Virus record (IMG/VR): IMGVR_UViG_3300044859_001932
Location: 1 to 57,680 of that record
Source: a virus
Taxonomy: Duplodnaviria > Caudoviricetes
Direction: 5' to 3' (one strand)
Length of the DNA stretch: 57,680 nucleotides
The notes beneath the pieces were generated by a model, which did not search any database, was not told where the DNA came from, and was given only the letters and a program-made list of their open reading frames with translations. The position numbers and the translations under genes were made by a program. This document shows, piece by piece, positions 1,052 to 49,295 of this stretch (position 1 is its first letter; the number at the start of each line of letters is the position of its first letter).

Positions 1052-1852
1052 TTAAATTGGAAGTTTTACCTTACTTAAAAGACTATTTGAGACGTGTGTG
1101 TAAATTTCTGTTGTTTTAGAGCTAGAATGCCCTGCTATTTTTTGGATAATTCTTAAATCAGTTCCTGATTCTAATAGGTTAGTGAAAGAGGAATGCCTTA
1201 GTGTATGTATTGATGACCCGTCATCAATGTATTTTTTATAAATTTGCTGACAGCTTCGTATTGAATACCATGAAGAATTTTGCCCATTAAAAAGATAATC
1301 TGAAGGTTTATACTCTTTAAAATATTCTCTTAGCAAAGTTAAAACAGTTAATGACAGCGGAACTATCCTATCCTTTCGACCCTTTGCATTTTTAATGTGA
1401 ATTATCATTCGTTTGGAATCAATGTCCTCGATTTTTAAGTTTACGATTTCAGACACCCTTAGGCCAACCGAGTAGGTTAGGGTTAGTATAGCTCTGTGCT
1501 TAATGTTTTGTATTTTAGCAAGTTTGCTCTTAATAAACTCACCATCAATAACTCTGGGTAACTTCTTTTCCGATTTTGGTCTTTTAAACGAAACCTTGTC
1601 GTATTTCTTATCTAAACCAAACTTATATAAAAACCTTATAGCGTTAATCACTTGGTTCTGTTGAGAAACCGAAGTGAATTTATAGTTATCCAAATAAAAT
1701 TGGAAATCTTTGGAACTACAATGGATTATCTGTTTGTCATTAAGAGTATTAAGAAAATCCCTAATATGACACATATAATTGTCTTTTGTTCTTGGTGAGT
1801 AGTTTAAATATATAAACTTTTCTTCACAAATCTTTATAATTTTTTGGTTCAA
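1052..1852 (-). CDS. integron-integrase-like tyrosine recombinase (TTG start)
   Basis: N-terminal YSPRTKDNY and SQQNQVINAIRFLY, KKLPRV; catalytic set GLR(VSE), KGRKDR, HTLRH, AGH, TTEIY(THV). No IntI-specific insertion between YLF and HTLRH. Confidence 0.92.
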   Translation of the reverse strand: MNQKIIKICEEKFIYLNYSPRTKDNYMCHIRDFLNTLNDKQIIHCSSKDFQFYLDNYKFTSVSQQNQVINAIRFLYKFGLDKKYDKVSFKRPKSEKKLPRVIDGEFIKSKLAKIQNIKHRAILTLTYSVGLRVSEIVNLKIEDIDSKRMIIHIKNAKGRKDRIVPLSLTVLTLLREYFKEYKPSDYLFNGQNSSWYSIRSCQQIYKKYIDDGSSIHTLRHSSFTNLLESGTDLRIIQKIAGHSSSKTTEIYTHVSNSLLSKVKLPI

Positions 1853-1859
1853 AGTATTA

Positions 1860-1905
1860 ATTTTAAAGTGTTTAATCTATACTTGTTTATATATAATAGT
1901 TATGC
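1860..1905 (+). other. putative attI-like site (crossover G|TT at 1899/1900)
   Basis: GTTATGC at 1899-1905, 47 nt upstream of the integrase start, complementary to GCATAAC of the first attC-like site, with no hairpin before it. The left boundary is approximate. Confidence 0.6.
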
Positions 1906-2088
1906 TCAATTAATTTTTATTTTCCATTTCTTATGGTCTTTAATCAATTTATGACATTTGTGGCACACTTTAAAAAGCATCGTTAACTCGAATAAATAAA
2001 AATTAACTGTTACTTTTCTGAAAGTGTAATTGTCGTGGGAGCAATCATCCGTTGTTGTGAATGTGTATGTATTTGATTCTGTAAGCAT
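1906..2088 (-). CDS. cassette 1 ORF, small Cys/His-containing hypothetical protein
   Basis: ATG lies inside core site GCATAAC (2085-2091) and TGA abuts GTTATGC (1899-1905), so the ORF exactly fills the cassette. Confidence 0.65.
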   Translation of the reverse strand: MLTESNTYTFTTTDDCSHDNYTFRKVTVNFYLFELTMLFKVCHKCHKLIKDHKKWKIKIN

Positions 2089-2180
2089 AACAATATGTAT
2101 ATGTAATGTGGCTAATTAAATTTATCTGTAAATTGAAAGTATGTGCAAAGCCACACTACACATACATTCAAACGTTAGGC
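2085..2180 (+). repeat. attC-like site 1 (96 bp)
   Basis: GCATAAC-aat-ATGTATATGTAATGTGGCT...AGCCACACTACACATACAT-tcaaac-GTTAGGC. Confidence 0.85.
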
Positions 2181-2181
2181 G

Positions 2182-2586
2182 TTATGCCAAGACCGACTTT
2201 GCGACAATCCAAAATCCACCATAATAACCATTGTGTTCATTGTGGTTTGCCATTTGAAAAACGCCATTACTTGTTTTGACATCTAAAAATTGTACTTCGT
2301 GGTCGCCATATTCATCTTCCATATTTGGAGCATTTTTTAGCTCAAAATCTAAAAGTGTAGTATTTGCATATTCGGTCAAGTCGTCTGCTGTTACCATATA
2401 TCTACTTTCGCAACAACTTTGACCATCATCAAACATTTTCAATCCAGAACCATCTGTAAATTTGAATACCAACTCATTGTTTTCTAAACTTACTTTTTCA
2501 ATTACTTTTCCAAGTGCTGATTTCACAGCTTCAACAGTTTCTTTATTACCACCAAGAGACTGTATCATTACGCCTAATCCTAACAT
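2182..2586 (-). CDS. cassette 2 ORF, phage-type hypothetical protein
   Basis: 134 aa with QSCCE and NGYYGG motifs that I recognise from phage hypothetical proteins; stop abuts the core site. Confidence 0.8.
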   Translation of the reverse strand: MLGLGVMIQSLGGNKETVEAVKSALGKVIEKVSLENNELVFKFTDGSGLKMFDDGQSCCESRYMVTADDLTEYANTTLLDFELKNAPNMEDEYGDHEVQFLDVKTSNGVFQMANHNEHNGYYGGFWIVAKSVLA

Positions 2587-2642
2587 ATTTTTTAATTTTA
2601 ATTGTTTACAAATTTTGACTTCCTACCGAGAAAGGCACAAAC

Positions 2643-2774
2643 GCCTAACATCGGTTTTGTGCAAGTGGGGCTGAACGATTAAATTCAACGGCAGTAATTC
2701 TATTTGGCTTTTGTGCTAACTTGAAACTTTTGTGTTCCAAATCCCCACCTGCACAAAGCCGTGAACCGTTATAA
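2643..2774 (+). repeat. attC-like site 2 (132 bp)
   Basis: GCCTAAC-at-CGGTTTTGTGCAAGTGGGG...CCCCACCTGCACAAAGCCG-tgaacc-GTTATAA. Confidence 0.85.
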
Positions 2775-2933
2775 CCCATTTTTGAGTTTAACCTTATTGT
2801 AGAGCCATAATTTTACTCCATTGGTAGGCTTATTTTTCCAATGTTCTTCAAGCAAATCAATGCTTTCTTTTGATACTTTATTCCACCTATGGAGTAAAAT
2901 ATATTTAACGTATGTTTTTAAAAAATCTATCAT
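2769..2933 (-). CDS. cassette 3 ORF, 54-aa hypothetical protein (not in ORF track)
   Basis: Manual translation MIDFLKTYVKYILLHRWNKVSKESIDLLEEHWKNKPTNGVKLWLYNKVKLKNGL*; the TAA stop is part of the core site. Confidence 0.7.
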   Translation of the reverse strand: MIDFLKTYVKYILLHRWNKVSKESIDLLEEHWKNKPTNGVKLWLYNKVKLKNGL

Positions 2934-2944
2934 AATAAAACGGG

Positions 2945-3077
2945 TTATAACAAAGTATATAAGTAAGTGGCTTTTAACTAGTTTACCCCTATCGGCATTT
3001 ACTTTCTCATAGTCCGTAGTACTCCGTCTATAAGCAATAAGAAGTAAGCCACCTACTCATATACTCAACCGTTATGC
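2945..3077 (+). repeat. attC-like site 3 (133 bp)
   Basis: TTATAAC-aa-AGTATATAAGTAAGTGGCTT...AAGCCACCTACTCATATACT-caacc-GTTATGC. Confidence 0.85.
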
Positions 3078-3146
3078 TCCATGCCTTAGTTCAGTGTTTC
3101 AAATTGAATTTTGTGATGAAAAACAAAAAGAATTTTCTCAACGCAT

Positions 3147-3707
3147 TTATAATCTTCTAATCCTTTTTATTACTGATGCATCCCAAATACAACCAGAATT
3201 TACATCAATAGTATTCATCCAGTAATATTCTTCTGATTTTTCATATAAATTTCTAACACCAAGTTCTTCATAATTTGGAAACTCAATACCTTTATATTCT
3301 TTTGAAACTAAATCCCAATTAATATTGTGTGGATAATTTTGACGTGTACTATATTTTTTTGTAAACTCTTTAAATAAATCTTCTGTATTCAGAATGATAA
3401 TTTCACTCAAATCAAAATATAATTTATAAACATAAACCTCACTATTCATCACACCCTTTAACGGTACGTTTTCCCCAGTGTCCCAAGTAACACCATGTTT
3501 TTTAAAATTAATCCAATTATCACCAAATCCATACCATAAACCAGAAGGTTTTCCATGAACATCTTGATTTTTAACTCTGATTTCAATTTTATCAATTGGC
3601 GTTTTACTTAGATGAATTCTTTCTTTGCTTCCTAATTCCAATCTTTCATTCACAAACTGTTTAAAGTTCTTAATTCTATCTATTTGTTCTCGCATTTCTT
3701 TTGACAT
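3147..3707 (-). CDS. cassette 4 ORF, hypothetical phage protein with capsid-targeting-like N-terminus
   Basis: 186 aa; begins MSKEMREQIDRIKNFKQFVNE; KPSGLWY and SGCIWD motifs. Confidence 0.85.
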   Translation of the reverse strand: MSKEMREQIDRIKNFKQFVNERLELGSKERIHLSKTPIDKIEIRVKNQDVHGKPSGLWYGFGDNWINFKKHGVTWDTGENVPLKGVMNSEVYVYKLYFDLSEIIILNTEDLFKEFTKKYSTRQNYPHNINWDLVSKEYKGIEFPNYEELGVRNLYEKSEEYYWMNTIDVNSGCIWDASVIKRIRRL

Positions 3708-3812
3708 AATATTTTCTTTATATATAAATATTAAGATTTAAAAAATCCACCCTAAAATTCTTTTTTTTTCGTGTTTCAAATCAACATTAGTACTTAATAA
3801 GTCGGCACGAGA

Positions 3813-3906
3813 GCATAACAAGGTGTATAAGAAAGTTTGCTATCAGCAGTTGTGGTAATTTGAAAGTTTATCCAAGCAAACCTTCTCATACACCCAATCG
3901 TTATAT
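3813..3906 (+). repeat. attC-like site 4 (94 bp)
   Basis: GCATAAC-aa-GGTGTATAAGAAAGTTTGCT...AGCAAACCTTCTCATACACC-caatc-GTTATAT. Confidence 0.85.
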
Positions 3907-3917
3907 GAAATGTTATT

Positions 3918-4226
3918 TTAGATTTTGAGTTTAATCATTTTACAAATCATATCAAATTCATCCATAGTATTACATTCACCATTAAACTTAACAGAGTGAT
4001 TTGGACCATCTTGGTTAAATCCATTATCTGTTGTTGTAAGTTTTACTATGTATGTATTGAATGAATGATTTTTACCATCCATTGTATATTCAGTTTTTTT
4101 AGTTTTTATATATAGAAAAGCACCTTGTCCATCATCTTTCCATACATCACCTTTTTCAAATTTCATTTCGTTGTCAAACTCAAAACTGAATTTCCAACCC
4201 TTTTGTTCAAAATCTTCTTTTTTCAT
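3918..4226 (-). CDS. cassette 5 ORF, hypothetical protein
   Basis: 102-aa ORF between core sites 3900-3906 and 4267-4273. Confidence 0.8.
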   Translation of the reverse strand: MKKEDFEQKGWKFSFEFDNEMKFEKGDVWKDDGQGAFLYIKTKKTEYTMDGKNHSFNTYIVKLTTTDNGFNQDGPNHSVKFNGECNTMDEFDMICKMIKLKI

Positions 4227-4266
4227 ATATTCTTCTTTTATTTGTAAAATCTAAAATAACACATTC

Positions 4267-4320
4267 ATATAACAAATGATAAACAACATTAAAACGATTG
4301 TTTATCATCGGACGTTATAA
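4267..4320 (+). repeat. attC-like site 5 (54 bp, minimal)
   Basis: ATATAAC-aa-ATGATAAACAA-cattaaaacga-TTGTTTATCAT-cggac-GTTATAA; perfect 11-bp stem. Confidence 0.8.
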
Positions 4321-4393
4321 GTAATAAATTAGTTCTTCTTTTGTTATTTGTATCTTTTTCATAATGTATAAATTTTAAAGTAACTAAATATAA

Positions 4394-4431: not shown

Positions 4432-5880
4432 TTAGAATCTTTTTAGAACATAAAGCTTTCTACTGGCTCTAGTATAGGAGGTATAAAGTATTCTATTTTT
4501 TTCAATTATATTAAAATTTTGATTTATGTCATCCTCCAGAACAAATGTTGTATTGTATGTGCTTCCTTGCGATTTGTGGGCGGATATTGCGTAAGCGAAA
4601 TTCACATCAGCATACTTTCTAAGGAAGTTGTAGTACACCAACCAGCTTTTATCCTTTCCTTTTTTTTCTATAGCTCTAAGCTTTAGAATATTAGCTAGTT
4701 TTTTAAAATCTTCTTCACTGTCCTCGTGTAAGATTTGTATATTAACCCTTACTGTTTCATCCTCGTCATCAAGATAGCTAACAACAGTTTCATAATACTT
4801 TAGAGTTATCGAAAATGGTTCGGCATCGGGTTGATCTGATATGTGATATCTAAGATCATCGCTACCGATAGTAAAACTATCCACACTGAATTCGTCGTTG
4901 GTGTTCAGAACTATTGACTCACCTTGAATGATCGGATTGTTTGCGATTAGTTTTTCCCCAACCAATATCTTTGATCCTAATGCTTCGTCTCCGTAGATAA
5001 CTTTACGAATAACATCATTCATGGTTGCAACAGTTTTATTTCTCCATGCAATGATCTTTGCATACTCAGAATCTTTTTTAAATTCATCGGTGACAAAATA
5101 GCGTCTTAGTATTTCTGAGAATCCTTTTCTTGTCTCAGGAATATTGAGATTAAGAAATTCTATTCCTTCACCTTTCTCATTTAACTTTGTAACGGGTTCA
5201 ACTGGATTTTTAGCTCTACCTAATTCAGATCTAATAGCCACAGATGATTCGATAATAGCATTATCTTTCTTCTGACGCATGATCTGTTTGAGATTAAGTG
5301 TTTTAATTCTATAACCTGCAGCCAGCTCTTCTCTAAAAGGAATACAATCGGGTTTACCTACTGGAGGAATCTGTGCTGGATCTCCCATGCAGATAATTTT
5401 TATTCTGTCTCTGTATTTTAGTACTTCTTGAAACAGATCATCATTCAGCATCGAAACCTCGTCGATAATAAGTAGCTTTACCGTCTTTATCTTTGGTTGG
5501 AAATCCCCCTGATTAACAAATTCCTGTACACCTTCTTTGGTTATCCTTTCGGTTAGGCCAAGCATTTTATGAATGGTTTGAAACGAAACCCTAGGATTTT
5601 TCAGCCCGCTGGTTTTTTTAATAACCCTCACTGATTTATTGGTTGGTCCTGTAACTGCTATTCTATACCAATTATGAGCTGGGTGTATTACCTCGAGCAC
5701 ATATCTAACAAGCACACTCACACAATAGGTCTTTCCTGTTCCTGCCCAACCCTTCAGAACATAAACACTATCATCTCCCTTATCACAGATGAAATCTCTT
5801 AAATCTTCAAAAGCTGTCTTCTGATCTGAGTTAAGAGATTCTAAATCTATTATTGGTTTTCCTTTTTTAACTTTAGCCAT
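4432..5880 (-). CDS. dda: Dda/RecD-like SF1B DNA helicase
   Basis: Walker A GWAGTGKT, TIHKMLG, IIDEVSM, GDPAQIPPV, AHKSQGSTY, YTRAS. Confidence 0.9.
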   Translation of the reverse strand: MAKVKKGKPIIDLESLNSDQKTAFEDLRDFICDKGDDSVYVLKGWAGTGKTYCVSVLVRYVLEVIHPAHNWYRIAVTGPTNKSVRVIKKTSGLKNPRVSFQTIHKMLGLTERITKEGVQEFVNQGDFQPKIKTVKLLIIDEVSMLNDDLFQEVLKYRDRIKIICMGDPAQIPPVGKPDCIPFREELAAGYRIKTLNLKQIMRQKKDNAIIESSVAIRSELGRAKNPVEPVTKLNEKGEGIEFLNLNIPETRKGFSEILRRYFVTDEFKKDSEYAKIIAWRNKTVATMNDVIRKVIYGDEALGSKILVGEKLIANNPIIQGESIVLNTNDEFSVDSFTIGSDDLRYHISDQPDAEPFSITLKYYETVVSYLDDEDETVRVNIQILHEDSEEDFKKLANILKLRAIEKKGKDKSWLVYYNFLRKYADVNFAYAISAHKSQGSTYNTTFVLEDDINQNFNIIEKNRILYTSYTRASRKLYVLKRF

Positions 5881-9118: not shown

Positions 9119-10660
9119 TTATAATTTAGATTTAATTCTTTTAGCTATATTTTGCTCCTCTTTGATAACGTTTTTCATGCTTTCAACTTGAGCTGGTTTT
9201 AGGGGAAGATTCCCTTCTTCATTAAGTTCTAAAACGTACTTAATCTCTTCTATACCTTTTTCTGTTGCCTTTAATATATCTTCGATATCAGCTTTGTTGT
9301 AATCGTCACCAATAAGTCTGTCGAATACATTTAGAGTTGCTTCACTGAAGATACCATATTGTTTAAACTCGTTCATGAAGTCACTTTTCTTAAGACCTTT
9401 AACGTCGAAGATGATCTGAGCAACCAATCCCGAGATCTTCTCCCAGTCTTCTTGTGGCATGGCGCCAGCTAAAAAACCTTTTGAAGTTGCTATAAGAGAT
9501 TCGATGATGTTTCTAATAGTAAGACCTGATCCCTCTTTGTAATATCTTTCAAGAGCGATTTTAATATCAGTCTCCATTTTAATCTTTGACATCACGGTGT
9601 CAATAAGATCCTTAGGATAATCAAGTCCTTCTAAAGCATCTTTTAACGTTCTGAAATTGTTACCGTTTTTATCTCTTAATCTGTTATTGGGTCTTGTTGC
9701 ATCCGTGTGAATTGATCCGTCAGTGTTAACTGTGATTCCGATTAAACTGTGAATATCAGTAACAGGAACGTTTGAGTTAATGATGTTGATCTGTACCCTT
9801 CCTTGACCATATGACCAGAATGTTGAATCTGTTCTAATACACCAGTTGGTGTCTGCACATATTGCTCTTTGAGCTTCTGGTGTTCTTGCAGATTCCACGA
9901 TGTAACCGTTTTTAGCATAAAGAATACCTGCCATTGGACCTAGGTCCTTAAGCTTCTTAAGTAATCCAGATTCGTCTTGGTTCCAGCCTTCAACAAATTC
10001 CAATGCGTCTTTAATAACATCGGCGAAAGCCACCTTTTCATCTCTGTATTCGGGATAAGTTCTGGTGTCTTCATATTTCTTTAGACCTTTGGTGAATTCT
10101 TTCCAGGCATTTTTTCCATCCTTGTCTTTTAGTTGTTCTAATTGGTTGGAGATTTCTGTAAGGTCGTCAATTTGTTTGTCTGTTGCTTTTGCGAAAACCT
10201 TTCTCATTTTACCAGTTAATTCGCTGTAAAACTTTCTAAGTTTTCTTTTTCTCTCAATGTTTCTAAGGTCATCCCCTAAAACCTCATAACCTGGACGAAT
10301 ATCATCTTCAGTAGGTTCAACTTTAGCATAATCATTAATATCCATAGACAAATCCTGTTTTAGGTTTTGCTTATATTTCATAAGATTATCGAAAATCTCC
10401 TTTAATTCCTCCATGTGAGCTTTTTGTTCGAATCTGAATTTTACGAACATTGGAGTGTAACCAGGGAATTTTTCTGTTAAATCCTTAACCTCTTTAAATT
10501 TTGGATCTGCTAGGATCTTTTTCTTTGTTTCTTCGTCAATTTCAGAAGTTTTTATTTTTTTTTCTAGAGCATATCTCTTTAAAAGATAGTCCTTAGCAGC
10601 TTGGACATTTTCCATCAGAGCTTGTTTCTCTGAAAATGTGGGGAAACTATATTTCATCAT
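9119..10660 (-). CDS. hypothetical protein, putative internal head protein
   Basis: 513 aa; follows a GATATATA motif. Confidence 0.75.
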   Translation of the reverse strand: MMKYSFPTFSEKQALMENVQAAKDYLLKRYALEKKIKTSEIDEETKKKILADPKFKEVKDLTEKFPGYTPMFVKFRFEQKAHMEELKEIFDNLMKYKQNLKQDLSMDINDYAKVEPTEDDIRPGYEVLGDDLRNIERKRKLRKFYSELTGKMRKVFAKATDKQIDDLTEISNQLEQLKDKDGKNAWKEFTKGLKKYEDTRTYPEYRDEKVAFADVIKDALEFVEGWNQDESGLLKKLKDLGPMAGILYAKNGYIVESARTPEAQRAICADTNWCIRTDSTFWSYGQGRVQINIINSNVPVTDIHSLIGITVNTDGSIHTDATRPNNRLRDKNGNNFRTLKDALEGLDYPKDLIDTVMSKIKMETDIKIALERYYKEGSGLTIRNIIESLIATSKGFLAGAMPQEDWEKISGLVAQIIFDVKGLKKSDFMNEFKQYGIFSEATLNVFDRLIGDDYNKADIEDILKATEKGIEEIKYVLELNEEGNLPLKPAQVESMKNVIKEEQNIAKRIKSKL

Positions 10661-10680
10661 AGGGTATAATTTTATATTAT

Positions 10681-10692
10681 GATATATATATC
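10681..10692. promoter_or_regulatory. palindromic GATATATATATC, putative bidirectional late promoter
   Basis: Lies between divergent genes; GATATATA on both strands; the motif recurs upstream of many genes. Confidence 0.6.
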
Positions 10693-10710
10693 TAAATTAA
10701 AAAACCAACC

Positions 10711-10977
10711 ATGAAAGTTTTCACCAAAATAGAAGAGTTTTTGGCAACTAAGCCCCAAACAGCTCCTAGTCAGCCAACTACAAAGCCTGGAACTGCTCCA
10801 GGAACAAGGCCTACCCCTTCAAGACCGAGCCCAATCAGAAGGGATAAACCATCTGTTGAGCCAGCTCCTAAAGCTAAAGCAAGTAACGTTGTTGATAGAT
10901 TTATGAAGGAACTTAAGAAGGCCAATGCACCTATAAAATTTGACATCTCAAAATTAAAGACTAAATATGAATCTTAA
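10711..10977 (+). CDS. Pro/Thr-rich hypothetical protein
   Basis: 88 aa, coupled to the next ORF. Confidence 0.75.
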   Translation: MKVFTKIEEFLATKPQTAPSQPTTKPGTAPGTRPTPSRPSPIRRDKPSVEPAPKAKASNVVDRFMKELKKANAPIKFDISKLKTKYES

Positions 10978-48821: not shown

Positions 48822-48831
48822 ATGGGGGCGG

Positions 48832-49295
48832 TGGATCCGCAGGGAGTCGAACCCTGGTCTCCTTCAGTTAACTCAAAGAATTCATTCACAGGCTTAGAAA
48901 GTTTTTTATAAACTTACAAACTAATCGGGTTTATGACACCAGCAAACATTTTGCTGTCTTTTAGTGACTTACAGCGTCAGTCAGAGAACTTACGTTAACA
49001 GCGATCTTAAGGGTATTGATGTTATCTCAGGGTTACTGATCATAAGCTCTACTTTTTTTGGTACTGTTAACCCTTTTTCCCAACGTCACATTTTTTTAAA
49101 CGGAGTAAGTGAGACTCCGGAGGTTATGCAGCGTAAGCGTACTCAACCTCAGTTACAGGAGTACCAAACGAGTTGATAGCGTCCCAAACTGATTTTTTGC
49201 CATTTATAGCTTTATATAGGTTATTAAAGTGTTTCCAATACTAACACTGCCTGCATTCAAAGAACTACGCCTGCGGATCAATTCCGGTCGGACCC
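48832..49295 (-). ncRNA. ssrA: tmRNA
   Basis: 5' GGGTCCG pairs with 3' CGGATCC-A with a G3:U wobble; T-arm CAGGG-TTCGACT-CCCTG; internal tag ORF 49201-49124 ending YAYAA*. Confidence 0.92.

Follow-up and report, generated by a model that had tools for sequence, protein, structure and literature searches.

An integron-type gene-cassette array beside a tyrosine recombinase in a large lake-water phage

Integrons are known from textbooks as the means by which bacteria capture and reshuffle genes, and their recombinase is defined by an extra domain regarded as essential. In a large phage from lake water (IMG/VR record IMGVR_UViG_3300044859_001932; the analyzed stretch of 57,680 nucleotides is referred to below as the window), a recombinase gene is found beside a row of small one-gene cassettes, raising the question of whether a phage has such a device of its own. 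The layout is like that of a bacterial integron, yet the enzyme is unusual and the cassettes face the opposite way, which suggests that phages can shuffle accessory genes in this manner. From the sequence comparisons described here, we consider it very probable that a phage-native, integron-type gene-cassette platform is the best explanation of the locus.

Anatomy of the locus

A first-pass annotation of the window had described a recombinase followed by five units, each holding one ORF and closed by a TAAC-hairpin-CGTTA site. All of its coordinates and core pairs matched the sequence base for base (Table 1). The G|TT junctions are located at 1899|1900, 2174|2175, 2768|2769, 3071|3072, 3900|3901, and 4314|4315. 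Each of the five units contains a single ORF, every one on the minus strand, and the stop codon of the cassette 3 ORF is the TTA of G|TTA. Pfam matches for the RNA ligase and the Dda helicase supported the annotation's view that the flanks are phage genes; the RNA ligase and the 155-aa ORF are both kept beside the recombinase in a relative (L005), and phage-type replication genes are present within the window.

Table 1. Positions of the recombinase, the sites, the cassettes, and the flanking genes in the window
Feature	Positions	Strand	ORF or basis	Recombination site	Core pair (start / end)	Hairpin arms
Left flank: RNA ligase fragment	2-526	minus	Pfam RNA_lig_T4_1; phage backbone			
Left flank: 155-aa ORF	529-996	minus	phage backbone			
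Tyrosine recombinase, Xer/IntI-like	1052-1852	minus	266 aa; Pfam, motifs, alignment, tree			
attI-like site	1853-1903	no strand		conserved TTTATATATAATAG|TTA at 1887-1902; crossover G1899|T1900		
Cassette 1	1900-2174	minus	1906-2088 (60 aa)	attC-like, 2084-2183, ~88 nt class	GTTATGCT (1899-1906) / AGCATAAC (2084-2091)	2095-2113/2149-2167
Cassette 2	2175-2768	minus	2182-2586 (134 aa, DUF7448)	attC-like, 2640-2777, ~124 nt class	GTTAGGCGTT (2174-2183) / AACGCCTAAC (2640-2649)	2652-2670/2743-2761
Cassette 3	2769-3071	minus	2769-2933 (54 aa)	attC-like, 2942-3079	GTTATAACCC (2768-2777) / GGGTTATAAC (2942-2951)	2954-2973/3046-3065
Cassette 4	3072-3900	minus	3147-3707 (186 aa, unknown function)	attC-like, 3811-3909	GTTATGCTC (3071-3079) / GAGCATAAC (3811-3819)	3822-3841/3875-3894
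Cassette 5	3901-4314	minus	3918-4226 (102 aa)	short attC-like, 4264-4323, 46 nt class	GTTATATGAA (3900-3909) / TTCATATAAC (4264-4273)	shorter stem, ~4276-4310
Right flank: Dda/PIF1-like SF1 helicase	4432-5880	minus	Pfam AAA_30, UvrD_C_2, PIF1; phage backbone			

The recombinase retains its catalytic motifs (GLR at residues 130 to 132, KGRKDR from 157, HTLRH at 216 to 220, GH at 241 and 242, and Y251) and matches Pfam Phage_integrase with 118.6 bits, as well as SAM_4. Its alignment with VchIntIA (2a3v) falls into two blocks, query residues 17 to 178 with chain residues 17 to 181 and 209 to 262 with 260 to 313, and the IntI-specific additional domain around patch III is absent, with approximately 50 aa missing. 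Scores were below every NCBIfam cut-off, IntI-type and Xer-type alike: 146 bits for TIGR02249 (cut-off, 265), 96 for NF011946 (435), 178.2 for NF040815 (220), 141.6 for TIGR02225 (329.6), and 141.3 for TIGR02224 (335). Canonical IntI identity was rejected on account of the absent domain and these scores, and membership among the Xer dimer resolvases (XerA/XerC/XerD) was rejected because the curated cut-offs of NF040815, TIGR02225, and TIGR02224 were all missed. In the tree, the phage recombinases group apart from bacterial relatives, a split with 100% SH-aLRT support. Since the enzyme lacks the IntI domain, tools such as IntegronFinder would probably output a CALIN, its term for at least two attC sites with no integron integrase nearby, or nothing; current finders probably miss or mislabel the whole class, in phages as well as in Bacteroidota chromosomes.

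All five window sites combine AAC/GTT cores with a hairpin. A scan for TAAC-stem-GTTA (14-bp stem, no more than 2 mismatches) returned four matches in the window, all within 2088 to 3903, and none in each of 10 shuffles. Only five sites in the 57.7 kb fit a covariance model trained on 35 sites. Those of cassettes 1 (84.8 bits, minus strand) and 4 (90.9 bits) were within the training set, whereas those of cassettes 2 (23.5 bits, E 0.02), 3 (28.7 bits, E 0.0015), and 5 (36.1 bits, E 4e-5) were untrained; the next, unrelated match in the window had an E value of 2.1. The five-site array is beyond chance. At the family level, the same model returned 376 matches (E value of 0.01 or lower) across 1.03 Mb; among the 300 matches listed, 11 were on the opposite strand, each echoing a stronger match, and 5 were downstream of the recombinase. 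No Rfam family matched the sites.

The hairpin arms of cassettes 1 to 4 are 19 to 20 nt each and 89 to 90% complementary. One of the six window cores fits GTTRRRY, the consensus core being GTTA(T/G)NNN. In the consensus stem of the 35 sites there are no bulged bases but a 5-nt/1-nt internal loop, with compensatory changes at 17 of 24 stem pairs and a G.U pair that is invariant in 35/35 sequences, corresponding to a fixed G.T wobble in DNA. The cassette 2 site is 73.7% identical to sites of Flavobacterium siphophages. The minus strand is the better folder in all five window sites. Non-Watson-Crick stem positions, read on the plus strand, were A.C (413) and C.A (67) versus T.G (36) and G.T (12); as this asymmetry favors the mRNA-sense strand, selection on an RNA hairpin and selection on folded DNA are inseparable in it.

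Cassette exchange among related phages

Relatives of the recombinase are encoded on 201 IMG/VR contigs, and metagenomic homologues number in the thousands. The recombinase-bearing relatives include complete jumbo phage genomes: one record of 265,845 bp, which carries direct terminal repeats, and another of 362 kb each have a completeness rating of 100%; a terminase was present in four of five relatives' records checked. An array of at least two sites within 3.5 kb adjoins the 5' end of the recombinase gene in 54 of the 55 loci that continue for 1.5 kb or more past the start of that gene. Cassettes face the recombinase in 333 of 358 cases across the family, as do all five in the window. Their content is highly diverse and mostly of unknown function, with DNA methylases among the jumbo-phage cassettes.

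In 77/80 loci, a conserved site that closes with G|TTA is found 45 to 60 nt upstream of the recombinase gene, and variation begins exactly there. Its motif can also be written TATATAATAG|TTA or TATA..AG|TTA. Homology of the window with L004, L005, L006, L010, and L012 ends at 1902 to 1910, and in four groups of loci the same 60-nt left half of attI has a different first cassette attached. Evidence for insertion at G|TT of attI is comparative: sequences part right past G|TTA, also where their left halves are identical.

The first-pass annotation had proposed that cassettes joined the array singly at G|TT and that the locus be compared across phages. Relatives do show gain, loss, and changed order of cassettes, with breaks at G|TT(A), in support of single additions beside the phage recombinase. 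Three loci (L010, L025, and L026) have backbones that are 97 to 99.7% identical and arrays that differ by whole cassettes, breaking at G|TTA. Cassette 5 is approximately 97% identical at the nucleotide level to a cassette of L058/L059 (reverse complement of 10375 to 10788), where the recombinase is 66% identical, and the edges of this homology fall at CG|TTA and G|TTA. Other cassettes are common to the arrays of L046/L005 and L063/L068, and matches of the cassette 4 site in relatives stop at 3905 to 3914. Circular cassette junctions, which the annotation had suggested looking for, did not appear in clean form (e.g., 4314 joined to 3901) in Logan contigs of four lake runs, nor did cassette-exact deletions; rare variants drop out of such contigs.

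A footprint of circular intermediates was seen in the cassette ends. As the annotation had claimed, the GTT core opening each unit complements the core closing the same unit (5/5 window units). For the family, 317 non-redundant pairs of adjacent sites were used to compare the 6 nt that follow GTT with the 6 nt that precede AAC. Complementarity to the cassette's own end was complete in 164 pairs, and that to the site's own hairpin in just 3; the mean numbers of complementary bases were 4.48 and 2.60, respectively, and 2.42 for shuffled partners. In 116/317 pairs, four or fewer of the six bases were complementary, which probably stems from missed sites.

Proposed mechanism and alternatives

With the plus strand of the window named top and the minus strand bottom, we propose that the Xer/IntI-like recombinase exchanges small cassettes in circular form, in each of which one ORF is joined to one imperfect hairpin site. 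The site would have the form xxxxTAAC-stem-loop-stem-CG|TTAxxxx in top-strand notation, with strand exchange at G|TT. Recombination of attI with attC would insert a cassette next to the recombinase, and that of attC with attC would excise or reorder cassettes; such events, and the role of the adjacent recombinase as their catalyst, are inferred. The substrate is most likely single-stranded, namely, the folded bottom strand, on which both the ORFs and the recombinase are encoded. In canonical attC sites, strand and register are marked by bulged bases that are read by the extra domain of IntI; in the phage sites, the G.T wobble and the asymmetric internal loop probably serve as the marks. Since the ORFs face the recombinase, they would have to rely on read-through from the phage or on signals carried within the cassettes, and not on a Pc promoter in attI. 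The array may be used as a stock of accessory or counter-defence genes, e.g., DNA methylases, that can be shuffled. What counts against the proposal is the missing IntI domain, which the literature describes as necessary for integron recombination (10.1101/2022.02.06.479319).

The alternative that fares best, unlikely as we judge it, is that the array is passive: another enzyme, from a host integron or a co-infecting element, moved the cassettes, and the adjacent recombinase has a different job, e.g., in lysogenic integration or in resolving dimers. A 38-kb Flavobacterium siphophage does carry arrays of this site type without a recombinase, and a 462-kb phage carries them with only an 88-aa recombinase fragment; because small phages keep arrays without the gene, an enzyme in cis is not required for array maintenance. 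IntI1 can recombine attC sites of virulent phages, according to section 3.4 of Qi et al. 2023 (PMC9892861), and two relatives carry an IMG/VR provirus label. However, the adjacency of recombinase and array, the conserved site at which variation begins, and the separate clade of phage recombinases all argue against a passive array, as does the finding that the nearest bacterial relatives likewise adjoin attC arrays.

Less probable still is the explanation that the hairpins act in RNA or as regulatory repeats between genes (terminators or processing/stability elements) and that modules were swapped by homologous recombination across them. It would suit the better-folding strand being the transcribed sense with G.U-compatible wobbles, the conserved AATTTGAAAGT-like motif in the loops, and the high copy number of the sites in metagenomes (bin depth of 132 to 640 versus approximately 8 for the flanks). 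Cassette 5, however, is common to arrays in which the neighboring hairpin is unrelated, and its homology starts at CG|TTA, so that no long homology was on offer for exchange. Moreover, a start core of 6 to 10 nt that complements the cassette's own end is the footprint of a circle and is not made by homologous exchange, and the attI-like site is a breakpoint although it is not a hairpin. An artefact, in which phage DNA and a bacterial integron were assembled into a chimera or a contig of bacterial origin was wrongly labelled viral, is very improbable: the window is a fragment rated 21% complete, no structural gene was found among its 10 large ORFs scanned, and related site types occur in Bacteroidota chromosomes, but dozens of independently assembled records share the recombinase-attI-array layout, complete jumbo phages with terminase among them, 24 lake-water runs carry the locus, array GC (0.24 to 0.35) is near that of the flanks (0.32 to 0.38), and cassette polarity is reversed relative to bacterial arrays.

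Beyond the platform itself, a wider joint reading is possible rather than probable, namely, that Bacteroidota phages run a cassette economy of their own, apart from that of bacteria. Jumbo phages of one clade may use a streamlined integrase without the IntI domain to read hairpins marked by a G.T wobble; the cassettes may be mirror images, with the ORF on the recombining strand; they may circulate among co-infecting phages, including small virulent ones that have arrays and no enzyme; and they may constitute a common, fast-shuffled store of counter-defence and accessory genes. If this were true, the extra domain of IntI, which has been called necessary for integron recombination (10.1101/2022.02.06.479319), would be dispensable for recombination of this type. 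The platform in itself, found in a widespread phage lineage, would have three consequences. It would give phages a means dedicated to replacing genes module by module, with a bearing on phage-host arms races, in which the DNA methylase cassettes point to anti-restriction. It would supply a plausible cognate enzyme for the orphan attC clusters of virulent phages. And it would open the structural rules by which attC is recognized, be it through bulged bases or a wobble, to direct tests with a small enzyme.

Comparison with known systems

The likeness to integrons noted in the first-pass annotation holds for the anatomy and the G|TT footprint, but not for the recombinase, which is not a canonical IntI, or for the ORFs, which are inverted relative to attC polarity. 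Classical integrons (class 1 and Vibrio) share a tyrosine recombinase transcribed away from an adjacent attI, single-ORF cassettes ending in an imperfect hairpin with AAC...GTT cores, a G|TT crossover with the cassette start complementing R'' of its own site, a better-folding bottom strand, and diverse cassettes mostly of unknown function. They differ in keeping the IntI-specific domain, approximately 50 aa of which the 266-aa phage recombinase is without, and in their cores (R'' RYYYAAC and R' GTTRRRY versus the phage consensus GTTA(T/G)NNN). Strand choice in classical attC sites is set by extrahelical bases, whereas the phage sites have the G.T wobble and the 5-nt/1-nt internal loop. Classical cassettes are read away from attI under Pc; the phage ORFs lie on the bottom strand towards the recombinase, so a Pc-type promoter in attI cannot drive them. 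The replicon, unlike that of classical integrons, is a jumbo phage.

Closer in enzyme type are the NF040815-type recombinases of Bacteroidota and other phyla, which are 41 to 51% identical to the phage enzyme and likewise without the IntI insertion. Chromosomal attC sites beside them match the phage model in 5/5 genomes tested, and their arrays show the same cassette-end complementarity (26/43 pairs perfect). These bacterial enzymes are, however, 344 to 385 aa long, with an N-terminal extension, and score above the NF040815 cut-off, unlike the phage enzyme. Their arrays are downstream of the recombinase gene instead of at its 5' end, and their ORFs have the classical polarity (41 versus 2), opposite to that of the phage.

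Xer-dependent mobile DNA, such as CTX-phi with its folded single-strand attP and plasmid pdif modules, relies on host XerC/XerD and dif-like 28-bp sites. It is alike in a Xer-like enzyme without the IntI domain and in folded hairpins or short sites bounding modules; the phage locus differs in a phage-encoded enzyme, attC-like sites, and an ordered array that has a dedicated attI. Archaeal integrons (Ghaly et al. 2022, 10.1101/2022.02.06.479319) resemble it in having nonclassical hosts and attI beside the integrase gene, but archaeal IntIs are described there as retaining the additional domain that the phage enzyme is without.

The first-pass annotation knew of no characterized phage-resident example; phage integrons and attC clusters have, however, been published before (Qi et al. 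2023, PMC9892861). The complete phage integrons described there are of bacterial type and in temperate phages, and the virulent-phage cases, Polaribacter phage P12002L among them, have no integrase. Integron parts in phages are known from that work, while no report of the phage-native lineage described here was found. In P12002L and in Flavobacterium Muminvirus phages, sites that agree in sequence and structure type with those of the jumbo phages adjoin DNA methylase genes on the opposite strand, which is the same phage polarity. These CALIN-type phages are without recombinase (checked for Muminvirus) or attI, whereas in the jumbo-phage family both are present and conserved.

Organization and folding of the attC-like sites

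The first-pass annotation had described five single-ORF units adjoining the 5' end of a recombinase gene, and all of its coordinates were borne out when the window sequence was rechecked. The hairpin site xxxxTAAC-stem-loop-stem-CG|TTA, where G|TT denotes the crossover in top-strand notation (top and bottom strand standing for the plus and minus strands of the window), was present at five of five unit ends. The word after each G|TT was the reverse complement of the word before the TAAC closing the same unit, in the pairs previously listed. In the window, G1899|TTATGCT lies approximately 47 nt upstream of the recombinase start. Four sites had stems of 19 to 20 nt with 89 to 90% complementarity, and the stem of the fifth was about 11 bp.

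Features of the cassette locus and the tmRNA gene in the window
Feature	Position	Strand	Description
Recombinase ORF, 266 aa	1052-1852	-	Pfam Phage_integrase + SAM_4
attI motif	1887-1902
Unit 1	1900-2174	-	One ORF, 60 aa
Unit 2	2175-2768	-	One ORF, 134 aa
Unit 3	2769-3071	-	One ORF, 54 aa
Unit 4	3072-3900	-	One ORF, 186 aa
Unit 5	3901-4314	-	One ORF, 102 aa
tmRNA gene	48829-49295	-	Rfam, 63.5 bits; ARAGORN tag peptide EVEYAYAA

A strict pattern scan returned four sites in the window, which all lie between 2088 and 3903; 10 shuffled sequences gave no site. Training of a covariance model of the site, R1, used 35 members of the 86-nt class, window sites 1 and 4 among them. The three window sites outside the training set were each matched on the minus strand, with E values of 4e-5, 0.0015, and 0.02, and the next unrelated match in 57.7 kb had an E value of 2.1. 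The window sites are not due to chance.

In the bottom-strand consensus, the four TAAC/GTTA pairs are invariant and are accompanied by an internal loop of 5 nt/1 nt and a stem of 20 bp; compensatory double changes occurred at 17 of 24 pairs in the 35-site alignment. One G.U pair was invariant in all 35 sequences, and a second was frequent. Read on the plus strand of 374 unique sites, the non-Watson-Crick stem positions, clustered at stem positions 8 and 13/14, were A.C (413) and C.A (67) versus T.G (36) and G.T (12). This wobble asymmetry indicates that the minus strand is the one selected to fold. Folding is selected on the same (bottom) strand in canonical attC sites, although these carry bulged bases where the phage sites have fixed wobbles. 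Since the ORFs lie on the same strand as the folding strand, it is possible that the hairpins act at the RNA level. Rfam searches of the window at gathering thresholds returned only the tmRNA and no family for the hairpin sites. The folding pattern is suggestive of a single-strand recombination mechanism in which the wobbles would play a role. In the loops of the 86-nt class, a AATTTGAAAGT-like motif was conserved (loop columns of alignments A2/A3; window positions 2128-2142 and 3856-3870), and conservation thus goes beyond the stem.

Cassette boundaries and exchange among related phages

Recombinase relatives in IMG/VR numbered 201, the best 80 of which were 58 to 98% identical, and metagenomes contained thousands of homologues of 266 to 267 aa on contigs of up to 343 kb. 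Before arrays were compared, the relatives' loci were turned to the window orientation. Of the 55 loci that extended 1.5 kb or more past the start of the recombinase, 54 had at least two sites within 3.5 kb. Altogether, 474 sites were collected (374 unique), in three size classes (about 46, 86, and 123 nt). Searched with R1 at E <= 0.01, 1.03 Mb of sequence yielded 376 matches; among the 300 matches listed, 11 were on the opposite strand, each an echo of a stronger match, and 5 were downstream of the recombinase. In three phage relatives (L060, L027, and L073), a second small site cluster lay across the recombinase from the main array, at a distance of several kilobases.

The footprint of circular cassettes was scored by comparing the 6 nt after GTT (cassette start) with the 6 nt before AAC (cassette end). 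These were fully complementary in 164 of 317 nonredundant adjacent pairs, with five of six positions matching in 37 more, whereas the same test against the site's own hairpin yielded full complementarity in only 3 of 317. The mean number of matches was 4.48 for cassette ends versus 2.60 for the own hairpin and 2.42 for shuffled partners. Judged by these counts, the circle footprint is general across the family.

The core pairs alone are also compatible with a crossover on the left, AAC side of the site, in which case each ORF would own its downstream hairpin, the classical cassette arrangement. This reading was rejected because of two observations. First, unit 5 is about 97% identical to a segment of phage relatives L058/L059 (reverse complement 10375-10788), and the recombinase of these relatives shares 66% identity with that of the window. 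The homology starts at CG|TTATATGAA and ends at GGACG|TTA, and the left hairpin and the right-hand DNA are unrelated; of the two adjoining hairpins, only the right-hand one is therefore part of the shared cassette. Second, phage relatives L010, L025, and L026, whose backbones are shared at 97 to 99.7% nucleotide identity, have the arrays Y-(B)-C-D-E-F-X-G-H-I, X-A-B-C-D-E-F-X, and X-A-B-G-H-I, respectively, with breaks at G|TTA on the right-hand side of each hairpin. The hairpin belonging to an ORF is consequently the right-hand one in the window, upstream of the ORF on the coding strand.

Other cassettes were common to unrelated arrays (L046/L005 and L063/L068), and window homology to the closest relatives, L004 (92.6% nucleotide identity), L005 (86.6%), L006, L010, and L012, ended at 1902-1910. 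The comparison of relatives proposed in the first-pass annotation thus revealed cassette gain, loss, and changes of order, with breaks at G|TT(A). Of 80 loci, only one shared the Dda helicase flank and six shared the RNA ligase flank, so that the right array boundary was not comparable across close relatives within 8-kb flanks.

The locus was present in 24 lake-water runs. Circular-cassette junctions, which the same annotation had suggested looking for, and cassette-exact deletions were sought in the Logan contigs of four of these (X2, X5, X11, and X19); neither was seen, only branching at repeated sites. The joints 1849>4261, 4328>2087, and 3741>4259 in these contigs were short sided or had unknown letters between, and look like other arrays sharing the repeated sites. 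Loose contig ends clustered just after G|TTA (3904 and 4318-4320) and just before the AAC-side core (3814-3816 and 4259-4270), which fits repeated sites with many neighbors and proves nothing further. Within window 4118-4318, summed contig depth in the four runs was 132 to 640 over the 46-nt site versus about 8 in the flanks, making this short site a high-copy repeat across the community. From the sequence comparisons, the cassettes probably move by recombination.

Unique cassette ORFs 60 aa or longer numbered 262 and formed 239 families. Pfam matches were few among the 149 representatives scanned: N6_N4 methylase (three), D12 methylase (one), and NUDIX, YopX, DUF7446, and DUF7448 (one each). 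A few matches, such as SmpB and tRNA synthetase, are probably backbone genes between stray sites. In the five window cassettes, the only matches were DUF7448/phrog_2650 for ORF2 and a weak phrog_8582 for ORF4.

The recombinase and attI

The window enzyme is Xer/IntI-like by sequence, scoring 178 bits against NF040815 (cutoff, 220), 146 against TIGR02249 "integron integrase" (cutoff, 265), and about 141 against XerD and XerC. Its catalytic motifs are intact, and we infer that it is the catalyst of cassette movement. The alignment with VchIntIA (2a3v) fell into two blocks, query 17-178 with chain 17-181 and query 209-262 with chain 260-313, indicating that about 50 residues of the IntI-specific domain are absent from the phage enzyme. 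That domain is called defining and necessary in 10.1101/2022.02.06.479319. When a tree was built from 67 phage recombinases and 74 genome-derived ones, a split with 100% SH-aLRT support placed all 67 phage sequences together with two from metagenome bins. The latter, genome contigs L084 and L087, come from bins labeled Gammaproteobacteria and Flavobacterium and may represent either phage contigs that ended up in bacterial bins or integrated copies.

In 77 of 80 loci, a motif ending in TATATA(A/T)AATAG|TTA preceded the recombinase start by 45 to 60 nt. Of 62 distinct attI left halves, each of four was joined to two or three alternative right sides, the change falling exactly at G|TT. Many loci had a second GTTTAA/GTTAGA-like word about 25 to 31 nt upstream of the attI crossover (window 1868-1874), a candidate second recombinase-binding element. 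Just after attI, phage relatives L006, L013, L016, and L042 carried ORF-less mini-cassettes, G|TTAxxxxx-CATTAAAACGA-xxxxxTAAC; in the 46-nt site class, CATTAAAACGA also makes up the loop, as at window 4287-4298. Whether the distal array end keeps a shared attI right half (TTATAAGTAAT, the word that follows the last window site) was also examined. A TTATAAGTAAT-like word within two mismatches occurred at 8 of 28 last sites versus 26 of 124 internal sites, which is no clear enrichment.

Phage context and comparison with known integrons

The window record is 21% complete and encodes an RNA ligase, a Dda-like helicase, a DNA polymerase, a thymidylate synthase, and a tmRNA. Among its relatives are two records that are rated complete, one of 265,845 bp bearing terminal repeats and the other of 362 kb, and a terminase was present in four of five relatives' records checked. 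The platform is a genuine integron-like cassette system native to a jumbo phage clade.

Flavobacterium phage filifjonk9-1 (L002 118-5567; record approximately 4.3 to 9.8 kb) harbors an eight-site array of the same site type and polarity, with correct cassette-end complementarity, four DNA methyltransferase genes, and small ORFs; no recombinase homologue was found in this 38-kb siphophage. Two further phages have the site type, LR756500 (462 kb) and Polaribacter phage P12002L. According to Qi et al. 2023 (PMC9892861), P12002L is one of the virulent phages with integrase-less attC clusters, one of its attC sites was recombined by IntI1, and the complete integrons reported are bacterial-type elements in temperate phages. 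That study was the only relevant one in a literature search of limited coverage, which returned nothing about this recombinase clade or lineage and nothing about integrons in jumbo or huge phages. The first-pass annotation knew of no characterized phage-resident example of this type; phage integrons and attC clusters as such had already been published (PMC9892861), and the search gave no report of the phage-native lineage.

The nearest cellular homologues of the phage recombinase were 41 to 51% identical and mostly from Bacteroidota. Chromosomal attC arrays downstream of recombinases of 344 to 385 aa were observed in bacteria and archaea (L119 [Flavobacterium cheonanense], L131, L141, L090, L151, L086/L088, L143, and L136); these enzymes pass NF040815 but lack the IntI-specific insertion, and standard integron finders would probably label the arrays integrase-less. 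The two enzymes examined, from L119 (344 aa) and L151 (385 aa), had an N-terminal extension. In F. cheonanense, one contig had R1 matches spanning at least 255-276 kb.

Several genome loci with arrays downstream of the recombinase gene displayed the classical ORF-then-attC polarity (41 versus 2), and their cassette-end pairs were perfect in 26 of 43 cases. R1 matched sites in all five such genomes tested. The phage arrays resemble these chromosomal NF040815-type arrays in that the sites fit R1 and both enzymes lack the IntI insertion. They differ in ORF orientation, which is classical in the chromosomes and inverted in the phages, where 333 of 358 cassette ORFs of at least 40 aa were on the bottom strand, the same as the recombinase. 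Given bacterial relatives with R1-type sites, classical polarity, and no IntI insertion, the phage platform looks like a derived branch of a wider integron-like family without the IntI domain, in which the cassettes have been turned over.
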